64,000 bases of DNA. It comes from Cyanobacteria bacterium P01_A01_bin.123. Its GTDB lineage: Bacteria; Cyanobacteriota; Cyanobacteriia; Phormidesmidales; Phormidesmidaceae. The position numbers were made by a program, and so were the translations under genes. The stretch spans positions 206,149-270,148 of the forward strand of contig JBCBZT010000001.1 of NCBI GenBank assembly GCA_039815185.1. Reading direction: 5' to 3'. Numbering within the stretch: position 1 is the stretch's first letter; each line of letters opens with the position of its first letter. The notes below the pieces were generated by a model. The model worked only from the letters and a program-made list of their open reading frames with translations, made no database searches and was not told the origin of the DNA. This document shows positions 6,635 to 64,000 of this stretch, piece after piece.

Positions 6635-8023
6635 TCAAGGTTTAGAACAAGCGTTAACTAATTTTTCGGGTAACTCAATCCGGTGCCCCCATTGCAGGTG
6701 AATGTAGGACGCGTGGACATTATGAGAAGCCCAGCCTTCTGAGTTGATCGGACTTTGGGGATGATAGCCACGCGTTTCGTAAAGTGGAGCAGGGGGAGAA
6801 TGGCTGAGGTGAGAGCGATGAAATTCGTGTCCCCAAACTTCAGCACCTGAATTCACGAGGGGGGTGTCTTGTTGGGCGATCGCGCGTCGATAGCCCAATA
6901 CTAAGCGATCGCCCATAATTGCGTCTGTCGCTAAACTGCCTGCCATAGCCCAGGATTTACCTTCAAAATCGGTGAGGGAGTGACACAGGTACATCAAGCC
7001 ACCACATTCGGCGTAGGTGGGCAGTCCAGCGGCGATCGCAGCACGGACGGCTTCACGGCCAGGTTGGTTATCGCTCAAGGCATCTGCAAAAACTTCGGGG
7101 AACCCCCCGCCAAAATATAACCCCCGGGTGCCTGGGGGTAAAGCAACCTCATCCAGGGGACTCCAAGGGATCAATTCGGCTCCCAGCCGTTCTAATGTGG
7201 TGAGATTGTCGGCATAGTAAAAGCTAAAAGCGCGATCGCGGGCAACGGCAATACGTGGACGGGGGTTTGGAAGTTCTACCGCCGCTGGCCGTGAATGATG
7301 GGGCACGGGCGCAGTTGGATGCACCTGCATTGGATGTGCCTGTAACAGTGGCGTCAACTGTGACCAGTCAAAGCAAGTGCGTCCCAGTTCTGCCAGTTGA
7401 GCCACAATGTGAGCAAAGTCTTGCAGCTCGGCAGTCGGCACCAACCCGAGGTGACGATCGGGTAAAGCAATCGCCTTGTGGCGGCGCAACACGCCCAAAA
7501 TGGGTAGGTGGATTGCTGCTAAAGCGGCTTGCAGCAGTTCTAGATGCCGATCGCTGGCGACTCGATTTAACACTACTCCCACTAGATTAATCTGGGGATC
7601 TAGGGTGCGAAATCCGTGGGCGATCGCTGCCACAGAGCCCGACAAGCGACTGCAATCGAGCACCAACAGCACAGGTACGTCTAGTAGACGGGCAATGTGG
7701 GCTGTGCTGCCCCAGGCATCGGTTGCAGAAGCACCACTAGCGGCCCCGTCAAACAACCCCATGACACCTTCAATTAAGCAAAAATCAGCCCCATAGCCCT
7801 GCTGCTGATAGCACTGACACACATAAGCTTCGCTGGTGAGCACTGGGTCTAGGTTAAAGCTGGGTCGCCCAGTGACCGCTTGGTGAAACATGGGGTCGAT
7901 GTAGTCTGGGCCGACCTTAAAGGCTTGGATGGACTGTCTTCGTTGGGCGATCGCGGCCAGCAGTGCCAGGGTTACCGTGGTTTTACCCACTCCACTTCGT
8001 TCCCCCGCCACGATCAACCCCAT
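6635..8023 (-). CDS. cbiA: Cobyrinate a,c-diamide synthase (CbiA/CobB)
   Basis: SGVGKTT, FKVGPDYIDP, IEGVMGLFDG, GATase motifs AECGGLMYL and GHEFH. Confidence 0.93.
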   Translation of the reverse strand: MGLIVAGERSGVGKTTVTLALLAAIAQRRQSIQAFKVGPDYIDPMFHQAVTGRPSFNLDPVLTSEAYVCQCYQQQGYGADFCLIEGVMGLFDGAASGASATDAWGSTAHIARLLDVPVLLVLDCSRLSGSVAAIAHGFRTLDPQINLVGVVLNRVASDRHLELLQAALAAIHLPILGVLRRHKAIALPDRHLGLVPTAELQDFAHIVAQLAELGRTCFDWSQLTPLLQAHPMQVHPTAPVPHHSRPAAVELPNPRPRIAVARDRAFSFYYADNLTTLERLGAELIPWSPLDEVALPPGTRGLYFGGGFPEVFADALSDNQPGREAVRAAIAAGLPTYAECGGLMYLCHSLTDFEGKSWAMAGSLATDAIMGDRLVLGYRRAIAQQDTPLVNSGAEVWGHEFHRSHLSHSPPAPLYETRGYHPQSPINSEGWASHNVHASYIHLQWGHRIELPEKLVNACSKP

Positions 8024-8029
8024 TATCTT

Positions 8030-9598
8030 TTAGTCCACGGCAAACGTTTCAACACCAGATTGGTCAGCCTTAGAGAGGGCCGTTGTCCCCACGGTGGGTT
8101 GTAGCAGCGGCGTCCGCAAAATGGAATCATTGGCTAACGTGAACAATGGATTCGACAAAATGCCTGCTAATGAAGTGGCAACCACCGCCAATACCAAGCT
8201 CACCTGGAGGGGACGCATTCCCGGCAGTTCCCAGCGAATTTCAGGATAATTTTTCACTGCGTCAGACATTTCTTGGGGTTCTTTCACCACCATCATCTTG
8301 ATAACGCGAATGTAGTAATAAATCGAAATGACGCTGGTAAATAACCCCACCAGCACGAGGCCATAGGCCTCTGCTTGCCAACCCGCCCAAAAAATATAAA
8401 GCTTGCCAAAAAAGCCAGCCAGGGGTGGAATCCCGCCAAGCGAAAGCAAGCATACGGTCAATCCCAAGGTCAGCAGCGGGTCTTTTTGATACAAACCGCT
8501 ATATTCGCTGATTTGGTCAGTCCCTGTTCTCAAGGAGAACAGAATCACGCAGGTAAACCCGCCCAGGTTCATAAATAGGTAAATCAGCAGATAAAACACC
8601 ATGCTGGCGTAACCCGCATCAGTACCCACGATCAACCCAATCATCACAAATCCGGCCTGCCCGATAGAAGAGTAGGCCAACATCCGCTTCATACTGGTTT
8701 GGGCCAGGGCGACTACATTACCTAGCACCATGCTGAGAATGGCCAAGGCCGTGAACACAAAGTGCCATTGCTCAGACACCAAGGGAAATGCAGTGACCAG
8801 TAGGCGAATAGCTAGGGCAAAGCCAGCCGCCTTAGACCCGACCGACAAGAAGGCCACCACTGGGGTGGGGGAGCCCTCATAAACATCGGGTGTCCACTGG
8901 TGGAAGGGCACAGCCGCAATTTTGAAGGCGATACCCGCAATCACAAACACCAAGGCCACCACCAAACCGATGGGTGCCTCGCTGCCATCCGCGAAAATAT
9001 TGGCCGCGATCGCAGACAATTCCGTCTCGCCACCCGACAACCCGTAAAGCAAAGAAATGCCGTACAGGAAAATTGCCGAACTCGCTGCCCCAATCAGCAA
9101 GTACTTCAAGGCCGCTTCGTTAGAGCGCGGATCCCGCTTCATGTATCCCGTTAGCAGATACGACGAAATACTCAGGGTTTCCAACGACACAAAGATCATG
9201 ACCAACTCATCAGCGCCAGAGAGGAACATGCCCCCTAGGGTAGCCGTGAGCAAAATCACCAAAAACTCTGCCAGAGAGGTGCCCGATTGCTCAATATAGC
9301 GAATAGACATAGGCACCGTTGTCGCCGCTGCCAGGGCAATAATGCCCCGAAATACGACACTTAAGTCATCACCGTTGAAGGCGCCTAAGAAGGCCACAGG
9401 TGAGGTCGCACCCCACTGAAAGGCGAGGGCTACGACGGCGGTAATTAAACCCGCGATCGCCACATAAGGCGTCCATTTGGCAGAACTGCGACCCACAATC
9501 AGGTCGCCGACTAAGATCACAAGCAACGTCACGATGACAATGCCCTCAGGCAAAATCGCCCCGGCGTTGAGTTGGGCAGTGAGATTGGCAAAATCCAT
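8030..9598 (-). CDS. ndhB: NAD(P)H-quinone oxidoreductase subunit 2 (NdhB/NuoN)
   Basis: Polytopic; [52 protein letters not shown]. Confidence 0.96.
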
Positions 9599-58153: not shown

Positions 58154-58768
58154 ATGATGAAAGCAGCAGACATCATGACCCGAGATGTGGTCACTATTCG
58201 CGGCTCTGCCACTGTTGCAGAAGCTGTGGAACTGATGAAAACCAGAGGATTGCGTGCCTTGATTGTTGAACCCCGACATGACGCTGATCCCTACGGCATG
58301 GTGACCGAAACCGACATTATTTATAAGATCGCTGCCTATGGGCATGATCCGAAGCAAATGCGGGTCTATGAGATTATGACCAAGCCTTGTATCGTGGTCA
58401 ACCCAGACCTGGGCGTTGAATACGTAGCCCGATTATTTGCTCAAACGCGAATTCGTCGGGCTCCGGTGATTCAAGGCTCTCTATTAGGCGTTATATCGAT
58501 TAGCGATATCCTTAACAAGAGTGATTTCGTTGAAAAGCCAAAGCCTCTATTTATCGAAGACCGAATTGAAGTTGCCCGTGAAGAAGCTCGGGCCATTTGC
58601 GAGCAGCAAGGTGCTACCTCACCTGCTTGTGCGGCAGCTTGGGATGTCGTTGAAGAACTTCAAATGGCAGCGGCCGATCAACGCGGTCAGAAGCAGGAAA
58701 AATCTGCTTTTCAATCGTATTGCGAAGAAAATCCTGATGCGCCAGAAGCGCGAGTTTATGAAGATTAA
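58154..58768 (+). CDS. CBS-CP12 fusion protein
   Basis: CBS pair followed by C(8)C-AAAWDVVEEL and YCEENPDAPEARVYED. Confidence 0.92.
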   Translation: MMKAADIMTRDVVTIRGSATVAEAVELMKTRGLRALIVEPRHDADPYGMVTETDIIYKIAAYGHDPKQMRVYEIMTKPCIVVNPDLGVEYVARLFAQTRIRRAPVIQGSLLGVISISDILNKSDFVEKPKPLFIEDRIEVAREEARAICEQQGATSPACAAAWDVVEELQMAAADQRGQKQEKSAFQSYCEENPDAPEARVYED

Positions 58769-58806
58769 GTTGCTTCATTCAGAGTTCAAAAGGGGGACAA
58801 AGCACC

Positions 58807-59262
58807 ATGATGAAAGCAGAACAGATCATGACCAAAAACGTGATCAAGATTCGTGGCTCCGCAACCGTTGCTGATGCGGTAGGACTGATGAAAGAGAAAG
58901 GCTTGCGTGCACTGATTGTTGAACCACGCAATGAATCTGATCCCTATGGGATGGTAACTGAGACAGATATTATCTATAAAATCGCGGCTTTTGGTCATGA
59001 CCCAAAACAGATGCGGGTCTATGAAATCATGACTAAGCCCTGTGTAGTGGTCAACCCAGAACTTGGCGTTGAGTATGTCGCTCGATTGTTTGCCCAAGCG
59101 CGAATCCGTCGTGCCCCTGTCATCAAAAATGGACTTCTGGGCATTATTTCTGTTAGCGATATTCTCAAGAAAAGTGACTTTGTCGAAAAGCCAAAGAGCA
59201 ACTTTGAACTGTACTGTGAAGATAATCCAAATGCTCTAGAAGCCCGAATTTATGAAGATTAA
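58807..59262 (+). CDS. CBS-pair paralog retaining only the CP12 C-terminal tail
   Basis: CBS pair nearly identical to the upstream gene; ends NFELYCEDNPNALEARIYED; lacks AWD.VEEL. Confidence 0.9.
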   Translation: MMKAEQIMTKNVIKIRGSATVADAVGLMKEKGLRALIVEPRNESDPYGMVTETDIIYKIAAFGHDPKQMRVYEIMTKPCVVVNPELGVEYVARLFAQARIRRAPVIKNGLLGIISVSDILKKSDFVEKPKSNFELYCEDNPNALEARIYED

Positions 59263-61430: not shown

Positions 61431-61933
61431 AATGTCCTTTGACTCACTTTATTTCTGCTACGGGGAACAGTCAGTTACTTAGGCTTGACTAGGCCAGATG
61501 GCCGACAGTCAATAGGCTCTAGGCAACAACCGAAAACATTTTTCTAGAATCAAGCTAGTTTCAGAGCGTATTCTTATCTTGGATGCCGTTCTGTTTCAGG
61601 CATTACAAAATCAAGTTTATAAGTATTAAACTTTACCGACTTTAGTATTGGAGTTCGGCTTGAAATGGAATTCAGCTTGAAATTGTTGCGTTTTATTTTG
61701 CCAATATTAATAATCAATAGAAATCAAACAAAACCATCCGGAAATTATCCGAAATATGCATAATAGCTGACAACTTTAGGACTGTGAACCTTCACATAAA
61801 TCTCGGGTTGCTGTCCACACGTTTAGCGCTATATTGATAAAATTCTATTGGTATAGTTGCCCGAACAAATAGCGTGTCTCGGTTGAGGCTACCATAATCA
61901 GCATCAGGATCTAGTCAGGCTTGTCAGTTTCCT

Positions 61934-62647
61934 ATGATTCAGTCAACCCAGCCAATCTATGTTCAAATTGCCAATCACCTAAGACAAAAGATTCAGCAGG
62001 GAACTTATCAAGCAGGGGATAGACTCCCAAGTCAAAAGCAATTAGGGAATCAGTTTGGAGTCAATCGTCACACGGTTCGGCAAGCCTTTGATCTGCTGAA
62101 AGCTGAGGGGTTGTTGCGCGTCAATCGGGGGTTAGGGGCGTTCATTGAAGAAGCCCCGATTCGTTACCCGATTGGTAAGCGGGTTCGGTATAACGAATTT
62201 TTGCAGACCCAAGGACACACCAGTGAATACAAGTTTTTGCAAGCGGCTGAGATACCCGCGAATGAAAAAATTGCCGATTACTTGAAGCTGCAAATTGGTG
62301 AACCTGTCGCTCAGGTAGACTTGCTGGGCTTAGCCGATGACCGACCGCTGATCGTGAGTACGAGCTATTTTCCATCACGTCAGTTCCCAGGCTTATTAGC
62401 GCAGGTTCGAACAATCCAATCAATATCTAAGCTGATGCAAGGGGTTTATGGCTGCGATCACATTCGCAGCCATACCTATATCTCAACCCGAGCGGTGAGA
62501 ACGCAAGATGCCAAATTACTACAGGTGCCGCTCAAGCAGCCTATTTTGCTGGTCCAGGCAATTAACGTCGATCAAAATAATCGAGTGATTGAGTACACGG
62601 TGACCCGATTCCGAGGCGATGGTGTGGAGCTGAGTTTTGAACACTAA
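61934..62647 (+). CDS. phnF: PhnF-like GntR/UTRA transcriptional regulator
   Basis: FGVNRHTVRQA, IRYPIGKRVRYNE, TRFRGD. Confidence 0.75.
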   Translation: MIQSTQPIYVQIANHLRQKIQQGTYQAGDRLPSQKQLGNQFGVNRHTVRQAFDLLKAEGLLRVNRGLGAFIEEAPIRYPIGKRVRYNEFLQTQGHTSEYKFLQAAEIPANEKIADYLKLQIGEPVAQVDLLGLADDRPLIVSTSYFPSRQFPGLLAQVRTIQSISKLMQGVYGCDHIRSHTYISTRAVRTQDAKLLQVPLKQPILLVQAINVDQNNRVIEYTVTRFRGDGVELSFEH

Positions 62648-62650
62648 TCC

Positions 62651-62770
62651 TTGGTGATCAATCTGCAATTCTCCACCCAAGGTGGCCCGGTAAAAATGCA
62701 TGAACTGTTTGCCCAGTATCTCGATGATGTGGGTCTGAATATGCAGCTCAAAGAGGTCACATTTAGCAAG
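62651..62770 (+). pseudogene. Possible internal fragment of an ABC solute-binding protein
   Basis: ELFAQYLDDVGLNMQLKEV resembles the family-5 SBP 'Q.L..VG+.+.+' segment; no credible start. Confidence 0.35.
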
Positions 62771-62782
62771 TTTCTAGATTTA

Positions 62783-62815
62783 GAACCGGGCTTCTCTGCC
62801 AGAGAAGCCCGGTTC
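62783..62815. repeat. Palindromic small dispersed repeat / hairpin
   Basis: GAACCGGGCTTCTCT-GCC-AGAGAAGCCCGGTTC. Confidence 0.65.
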
Positions 62816-62907
62816 CTGCGCTGTGAGTTCTAACGTACACATCCTTGCCGGATATGACGAAGCGCTAGAATTTCAAATTCTACAATTAGTAAAGCTAGCT
62901 AGATGCC

Positions 62908-62940
62908 GTAGGGTGCTGTTAGGCAACGCCGTAACGCAGC
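62908..62940 (+). repeat. GTAG-type REP-like element
   Basis: GTAG followed by an imperfect palindrome GGTGCTGTTA-GGCAACGCC-GTAACGCAGC. Confidence 0.55.
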
Positions 62941-63000
62941 GCTTCGAGACTTAAAGTATTTGATCGAGAAGACGGGGAGATTGGATAGCACCATAATAGA

Positions 63001-63121
63001 TGACGTATAACTCCCCTAGGTTGGTGCTTATTTGTCAAAAGTGACGTATAAGTACCTCACTCATCATAATTAACTGTCAAAAGTGACATTTAGCACCCTG
63101 CTTTCCCGGAGTTATACGTCA
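63001..63121 (+). other. attC-like imperfect palindrome 1
   Basis: 14-bp arms TGACGTATAACTCC/GGAGTTATACGTCA containing AAC/GTT cores; inner GGTGCT..TGTCA / TGACA..AGCACC pairing. Confidence 0.55.
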
Positions 63122-63129
63122 AAAATTGT

Positions 63130-63232
63130 ACATAAGTTCTGTAAATAAGGGTTTTATCACCCAAACGTGACAGATAAGATCCGGAAGTGTGGATCTTATC
63201 TGCCAGATCTGACGCTGAATATATAGTTATGT
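63130..63232 (+). other. attC-like site 2 (degenerate left core)
   Basis: ACATAAG...GTTATGT ends; internal hairpin CAGATAAGATCC/GGATCTTATCTG; followed by a GAGG RBS and an ATG 24 bp later. Confidence 0.45.
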
Positions 63233-63256
63233 TTTTTACCCATTGAGGTATAGAAA

Positions 63257-63905
63257 ATGAATAAATCGGAAGAGTTTTGGGACAATGCGTCTAAAAACTA
63301 TGACAAGACCGAAGAGCGATTTGAGTACATTCATAGTAAATCTAGAAAGAATACTAGAAGATTCCTGAAAGGTAGCGACACTGTTCTGGATTATGGATGT
63401 GGGACTGGAACAGCATCCTGTCAGTTTTCCAGTCAGGTTAAAGAGATTCATGCAATTGATATATCATCAAAGATGATTGAAATAGCTAAAGAGAAAGCAG
63501 CCGTTAGTAAAATTGAAAACGTAAATTTTGAGCAGTCTGATATTTTTGACAAAAAATATTCTAATGAATCATATGACATAATTCTGGCTTTTAATATGCT
63601 GCACACAGTCACTAGTCCCCGGGATGTGATGCAGCGAATAAATGAATTGTTAAAACCAGAAGGTATATTTATCTCTGTAACACCTTGCTTGCGCCAGAAA
63701 ATGTCGCTTTTAGTAAATCTTCAAATTCAGCTGGTTCGGGTATTGTGTAAATTAGGATTAATTCCCATTCCTATAAGAAGGATAACGAGCTCTGAGGTAG
63801 ACGATTTATTAGAAACTGGCGGGTTTCAAACGGTTGAATCTGAAGAGATATATAGAGGAGCATCTAGTTATTTTGTAGTGGCAAAGAAGTTACAAAACAT
63901 ATATA
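63257..63905 (+). CDS. Class I SAM-dependent methyltransferase (cassette-like; 3' end interrupted by an intron)
   Basis: VLDYGCGTG, IDISSKMI, YDIILAFNMLH, LKPEG. AT-rich. The ORF-track C-terminus beyond 63905 is antisense intron sequence. Confidence 0.85.
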
Positions 63906-64000
63906 ATCGGGATAGGGAGAATCCTCACGAATCCCCCCTCCCACACCACCCTGCAAGCGGGTCCGCACAGGGCGGTTCAGCATCACGGAGCAAACTCTAA
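63906..64000 (-). mobile_element. Class IIC group II intron, 3' end (domains V and VI; partial)
   Basis: Minus strand: DV GAACCGCCCTGTGCGGACCCGCTTGCAGGGTGGTGT (CGC triad) and DVI GGGAGGGGGGATTC...GGATTCTCCCTATCCCGAT with bulged A and AY end. Preceded by ...LEFAP* (possible end of the intron-encoded protein). Confidence 0.9.

Follow-up and report, generated by a model that had tools for sequence, protein, structure and literature searches.

An antisense IIC-attC intron end in the attC of a methyltransferase cassette from a cyanobacterium

Introduction

Integrons are known in cyanobacteria, and the IIC-attC introns, group II retroelements of class C that settle in the attC sites of integron cassettes, are known mainly from the resistance integrons of Proteobacteria. 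Class C is told by a domain V that is short and contains a CGC triad; in the IIC-attC members an outward promoter, Pout, is common without being universal. Hairpin-guided reverse splicing, reverse transcription primed at the replication fork and blocked transcription of downstream cassettes have been described for such introns (PMC3001079, PMC4424553, PMC8876359), with TTGT|T as the consensus insertion site (PMC7923331). In S.ma.I2, E.c.I7, Kl.pn.I1, N.e.I1 and G.s.I1 this site lies on the attC bottom strand, within the R'' box, and the intron runs opposite to the cassette gene (PMC3001079); the locus described here has the same arrangement.

Sequences and samples

The window is the whole 64,000-nt stretch analysed, from genome assembly G000. 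Its base 64000 is also the final base of contig C113, so that nothing past it is contiguous with the window, and the intron body beyond is unassembled. G000 is rated 5.99% contaminated and its smallest contig is 1795 nt; judged by its genes and by titled records that have the intron in common with it, the host is probably a filamentous cyanobacterium. Relatives were sought in 172 other genomes of the same family (G- and L-numbers denote genomes and loci), and one locus used repeatedly below, L061, is a contig of another, independent MAG. Metagenome contigs came from four runs in two studies; X1, X2 and X3 are runs of a single study, possibly close to where the assembly came from, and so are not three independent witnesses.

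The intron 3' end

Positions 63906..64000 (minus) carry the 3' end of a IIC-attC group II intron, with the end of domain IV followed by domains V and VI; the intron runs on past the contig end. Rfam Intron_gpII (RF00029) matches at 63977-63906 (minus; 41.2 bits against a gathering score of 40, E 1e-4), the sole match of any Rfam family within the 64-kb window, and the minus strand of 63985-63906 folds at -42.7 kcal/mol (z -4.45), as well as none of 200 shuffles. Domain V, seen both by Rfam and in the fold, spans 32 nt (63945..63976, minus), the short helix of class C, with its CGC triad at 63974-63972. In the fold domain VI (63908..63943, minus) has a bulged A at 63913, the putative branch point, and the intron ends AT, in agreement with the AY ending of group II introns. 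The boundary was fixed independently: the same 95 nt stand with 100% identity at the ends of eight contigs (C5, C14, C106, C111, C113, C121, C127 and C130), and the flanks diverge exactly there, all eight beginning with T. The earlier note, made from the letters alone, had read on the minus strand a domain V (CGC triad) and a domain VI ending CCCGAT at 63906, with a 3' exon starting TATAT; Rfam match, fold and copies all agree with it.

The boundary has a consequence for annotation. The ORF at 63257-64000 continues for 31 codons in antisense intron sequence before it stops at 63998-64000, and the note had taken the apparent C-terminus of the methyltransferase for nothing more than antisense intron. 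Those 31 codons are indeed intron, but insertion by itself normally keeps the stop, since the final A of TAA is provided by the intron when it lies antisense and ends AT, and in L061, with an identical intron end in the same cassette, the protein ends KKLQKT-stop. Compared with L061, G000 carries two extra bases ahead of the junction, and it is this local two-base indel which, by shifting the frame, accounts for the altered junction codons and the additional 31 residues. The 247-aa 'methyltransferase' is thus to be annotated with caution, as a cassette protein of 214-216 aa plus antisense intron.

The target site and the far flank

Immediately before the intron the window holds the left part of an attC R'' box (63901..63905, plus), in which IBS3 is base 63905 (a minus-strand T); the remainder of the attC is on contig C131, from base 137. 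When 61500-64000 was compared with the metagenomes, contigs of X1 and X3 continued the gene free of intron: in X3 all 24 nt shown are identical to the C131 exon and X1 shares the first 13, and none of the other six 5' exons of G000 has a start matching this continuation. An X2 contig matches the window up to 63903 and then goes on. C131 is the probable partner of C113 across the intron, as judged from intron-free alleles in other samples and not from a spanning read. Three other genomes (L221, L224 and L225) have intron-free homologues in which the attC starts in the same or nearly the same way.

The intron-less site computed from the two contigs is a 75-nt attC, whose bottom strand folds with an unpaired spacer between R box and L box, the latter having extrahelical bases (-14.4 kcal/mol; 0/300 mononucleotide shuffles as good). 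The insertion point is TTGT|T of its bottom strand, inside R''. Insertion at this motif had been anticipated in the note, and all seven 5' exons end TTGT and all eight 3' exons start with T; as also anticipated, gene and intron have opposite orientations, the gene on plus and the intron on minus. The prediction that the far flank would read ACAA on the plus strand, followed by a hairpin ending GTT, holds on C131, with the GTT core 75 nt on. The ordinary terminator that the note had named as evidence to the contrary was not encountered, this flank being an attC. Further along C131 there are two small genes, one of them DUF952, and two more sites that pass the attC screen.

In the relatives an attC-like long-range hairpin is present in 32 of 38 distinct 5' exons, compared with 25 of 250 random TTGT|T sites. 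The score is crude and fails to pick up three of the five G000 contig-end exons that are attC-like: among eight 5' exons of this genome only those of C131, C133 and C129 reach the cut-off, C47 and C123 scoring 9 and C21 scoring 6. On C21 (282-1164; L019) the attC before the intron 5' end appears to have been shortened by a transposase gene.

Two other pairings of contig ends were considered and rejected. C113 had been joined to C47 through GntR/UTRA and phosphonate-transport-like genes (names from ORF reading), and the metagenome contigs point to C131. C14 had been joined to C131 by perfect R''/R' complementarity, and the R' half in question belongs to the next cassette, which has its own matching R''.

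The cassette gene and the integron platform

The interrupted cassette carries a gene for a SAM-dependent methyltransferase (63257..63905, plus; Pfam Methyltransf_31, E 7e-29). Its homologues, present in five of the 172 family genomes at 69-88% identity, all stop at the junction; an attC-like site lies downstream in 5/5 and GTTAT upstream in the 4/4 that have upstream sequence. In the window a GTTATGT core, the same as in the homologues, stands at 63226..63232 (plus) as the crossover point of an attI-like site and the start of the cassette. Cassette exchange is seen here directly: contigs of all four metagenome runs leave the window at 63228/63229 and enter other sequences, and in G000 itself a different sequence follows the same platform on C14, C120, C129 and C131. 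There is one gene between core and R''; R'' pairs with one mismatch at this locus and fully in the intron-free alleles.

Upstream, the platform between intI and the attI-like site occupies 62960..63229, a region with 85% identity over 273 nt to C14 and with a long inverted repeat at about 63005-63120. The possibility that the repeat is itself an attC was rejected, since it belongs to the intI-attI platform. The C14 platform has a broken intI upstream, and partial platform copies are found on C120, C126, C8 and elsewhere. At 62951..62991 (minus) there is a frameshifted remnant of the first integron integrase codons, about 13 of them, reading SPRLLDQ and then a stop, where C14 reads MAPPKPPRLLDQV and the intact integrase of C36 reads METRPRKLLDQV. 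That on C36 is the one intact IntI of G000 (476 bits; cut-off 265); beside the attI-like site in the window only the remnant was found, so that this is not a complete integron. With the platform upstream, exchange at GTT and intI nearly deleted, the methyltransferase gene is the first cassette of an array that lacks its integrase. The note had interpreted the gene as a cassette, and replacement at GTT 63226-63228, together with intron-free homologues lying between a GTTAT core and an attC, bears this out.

A short repeat at 62908-62941, where intI breaks off, recurs on C15 and C133. Elsewhere in the window, at 58154-59262, there are two tandem, highly similar ORFs (204 and 151 aa), which from a reading of their sequence we take to be of CBS type.

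Other copies in the genome

That eight identical copies stand at different sites implies recent mobility. Matching 5' ends, GTACG after TTGT, are found at seven other contig ends (C11, C21, C47, C103, C123, C131 and C133); that on C21 matches RF02001 with 125.9 bits, and domains I-IV are thus seen on sister ends and C131, not contiguously with the window. The shared intron body has evidently been collapsed and lost in assembly. No class C RT was found in assembled G000, where there are three RVT_1 matches, none reaching E 1e-40 with a class C query; the match on C8 was tried as the intron's own RT and rejected as a distant long branch in the RT tree. A different group II intron on C8 (846-2261; L033), with a stop in its RT, has a 3' end that abuts a copy of the integron platform.

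The C14 locus again has the intron in the first attC, here after a glyoxalase-family cassette. Three of the eight 3' flanks of G000 copies are inside reading frames, outside attC. C106 and C11 together rebuild an amine oxidase gene, interrupted antisense by the intron, and C103 and C127 (L023, L028) rebuild a TPR-CHAT gene whose intron is in the sense strand, so that function of that gene would need splicing. The C121 copy is without a partner 5' end among the contig ends.

On C129, internal to the contig and in an attC, is a 690-nt ORF-less IIC-attC intron (7811-8501, minus; L031). Its 5' end is 96% identical to that of the mobile copy, its domains V-VI are different, and its point of deletion lies near the one in a family of ORF-less copies of 707-710 nt which share one deletion and sit at different attC sites in G027, G076, G118, G128 and G154. 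In G027 (L205, L206 and L207), a genome of three contigs and 99% completeness, there are at least two such copies, of 709 nt; other RTs are present there, none matching the class C query at E 1e-40, and the helper RT may have been lost or may be non-cognate.

It is tempting to combine these features into one scheme, in which a cyanobacterial IIC-attC sub-lineage marked by GTACG and YMDD is expanding in G000 with relaxed targeting, its RT also mobilizing the ORF-less mini-introns of 690-710 nt at different attC sites in several genera. We put this forward tentatively, as somewhat short of an even prospect. If true, the proposal that such introns help to build new cassettes could naturally be tried out in a single genome that has an intact IntI and copies both inside and outside attC.

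The full element, from its relatives

The 5' part of the intron has matches of E 1e-20 or below in 28 of the 172 genomes of the family, and all 28 distinct starts matched read GTACG, the pattern used having allowed both GTACG and GTGYG. The note had predicted GTGYG, and here it was mistaken, GTACG being also what stands at all seven contig ends. Its alternative of an isolated fragment with no RT or 5' end was not what was found, given these 5' ends and an RT frame in L061. In that contig 139/139 nt of the 3' end are identical, the exon is the same cassette, and an RT frame is open for 284 codons to the contig edge. Lengths are known for only eight of the 28, as the 3'-end pattern missed many copies; complete relatives of 1940 and 2010 nt have a 448-codon frame, and the 448-aa protein of G004 matches RVT_1 and GIIM only, with no endonuclease match. 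The RT/maturase ORF without endonuclease domain that the note expected is present in relatives, with an RT frame in L061 as well, but none is seen in the window's own copy. From these relatives we infer that this copy encodes an RT/maturase; most likely it has the full length of about 1.9-2.0 kb and belongs to a recent burst.

Among plasmids there is one match at 67% and then ltrA genes about 50% identical, and the three examined lie antiparallel among class 1 integron cassettes. In a tree of 33 RT rows, from which L126 was left out because the filter found no RT frame in it, a clade with support 100/100 unites five cyanobacterial rows with one from a metagenome, all YMDD. The clade falls with four integron-plasmid RTs in a 21-row group with support 93/90, which is under the tool's star threshold; the RTs used are those of relatives, and the named references (S.ma.I2 and so on) are not among the rows.

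The candidate EBS1 is ACAA in a terminal loop of domain I and makes on average 3.25 of 4 pairs with IBS1 over 28 copies, in line with the 3-4 bp EBS1-IBS1 pairing and upstream hairpin of class C. The pairing sum of 91, against a shuffle mean of 84, was reached in 95 of 5000 shuffles and is a weak signal, the sequences being related. Loops reading ACAC accompany GTGT targets in three of five cases, and a copy in G004 (C1:875435; L066) is inserted after GGTG with its EBS1 loop changed to CACA. At the usual place for P1out there is a -35 box, TTGCCT, with hexamers 16-18 nt on that are unlike a -10 box; an outward promoter with a good -10 was not found there, and the region of P2out is unassembled.

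One contig (G138:C2; L200-L204) holds five copies, of which four span 2.4-4 kb; insertions, or tandem repeats of part of the frame, split the RT. A 30-nt domain V stretch (L051, L056, L058, L059, L063, L064 and L065) is found exactly in records from Verrucomicrobia, Planctomycetaceae, Spirochaeta, Exilibacterium, Desulfomonilia and Oceanispirochaeta.

Explanation and alternatives

We hold with high confidence that a IIC-attC retroelement has inserted in the attC bottom strand of the methyltransferase cassette, the first behind the attI-like site of an integron from which nearly all of the integrase has been lost. By analogy with the family, intron RNA and RT/maturase would recognize the folded single-stranded attC together with IBS1 (TTGT, paired by the ACAA loop of domain I) and IBS3. 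Reverse splicing into DNA would be followed by copying by the RT, primed presumably at a replication fork, the element being without endonuclease. As the intron is antisense it would not be spliced from the cassette transcript, and it would separate downstream cassettes from an upstream promoter. Since it splits R'', the cassette is probably locked in place, a suggestion that is our own.

Is the window's copy intact? One might have the same site and lineage and yet a copy internally deleted, with no intact RT, which moved or moves by an RT acting in trans. Internally deleted relatives are common (785 nt in G014, with the same 3'-end type; 1371 nt in G094), the search of assembled G000 gave no class C RT, and with no contig under 1795 nt in the assembly, a collapsed body of small size would have been lost from it. 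However, longer sister ends encode an intact RT C-terminus, RDLWMKAQGYS, L061 with its identical end has the open RT frame, the linker that precedes domain V in the window resembles that of full-length copies and not the 707-nt mini type, and an active RT must exist somewhere to account for eight identical copies. We consider such a deletion unlikely.

Much less probable is that the 95 nt are an orphan domain V-VI fragment or an artefact of assembly at a contig end. So little sequence in an assembly with that contamination rating, and 3' remnants without 5' ends in relatives L053, L055, L069 and L070, would allow it, but matching 5' ends stand at seven other contig ends, two pairs of ends each rebuild one gene across the junction, and the same insertion is present in the independent MAG. 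Least credible of all is a generic class C intron after an ordinary terminator, with the methyltransferase a normal chromosomal gene: class C introns do mostly insert after terminators (PMC4424553), and IIC-attC introns retain terminator and non-attC targeting (PMC7923331), as 3/8 G000 copies outside attC illustrate, but here a 75-nt attC forms the flank, two further attC-like sites follow downstream, and the gene is patchy (5/172), flanked by GTTAT (4/4) and attC-like sites (5/5), and replaced at the same GTT.

Relation to known systems

In the literature searched no cyanobacterial IIC-attC intron was found; the surveys of Quiroga and Centron (2009) and Leon and Roy (2009) are known to us by citation only, so this host may already be in print. 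There is no cyanobacterium among the hosts in Table 3 of PMC3001079.

As for CALIN, or integrase-less arrays (PMC4889954), there are here at least three attC-like sites and no intact intI nearby, the intact IntI being on C36. In contrast to those described there, this array keeps an attI-like platform and a few intI codons, and for that reason visibly arose by integrase loss. Among generic class C introns the RT of GsI-IIC (PDB 6ar1) is the closest of solved structure (E 2e-133), and the target logic, a hairpin with short IBS1 and IBS3, is the same; the hairpin here, however, is an attC, and the RT stands apart from 11 other plasmid or metagenome rows that are class C-like.

It is the clinical IIC-attC introns that come closest. 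The Rfam families matched over domains I-IV are those in introns of a class 1 integron plasmid, the first-cassette position is that of S.ma.I2, E.c.I7 and Kl.pn.I1, and the length of about 1.9-2.0 kb with an RT/maturase lacking an endonuclease match, seen here in complete relatives, is also shared (PMC3001079). They differ in that the RTs of the present relatives are about 50% identical to theirs, the start is GTACG, the motif is YMDD and not YADD in all six rows of the clade, at least eight copies are present in one genome, the cassette encodes a methyltransferase and not resistance, and the -35 of P1out lacks a good -10. We place the element in the IIC-attC lineage, within a sub-clade from cyanobacteria with a GTACG start and YMDD; it is of established kind and mechanism and ordinary save for its host and its burst of copies. 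What it adds is host range, since the targeting rule is followed here among cyanobacterial cassettes too and several copies have spread recently, and possibly a test system.
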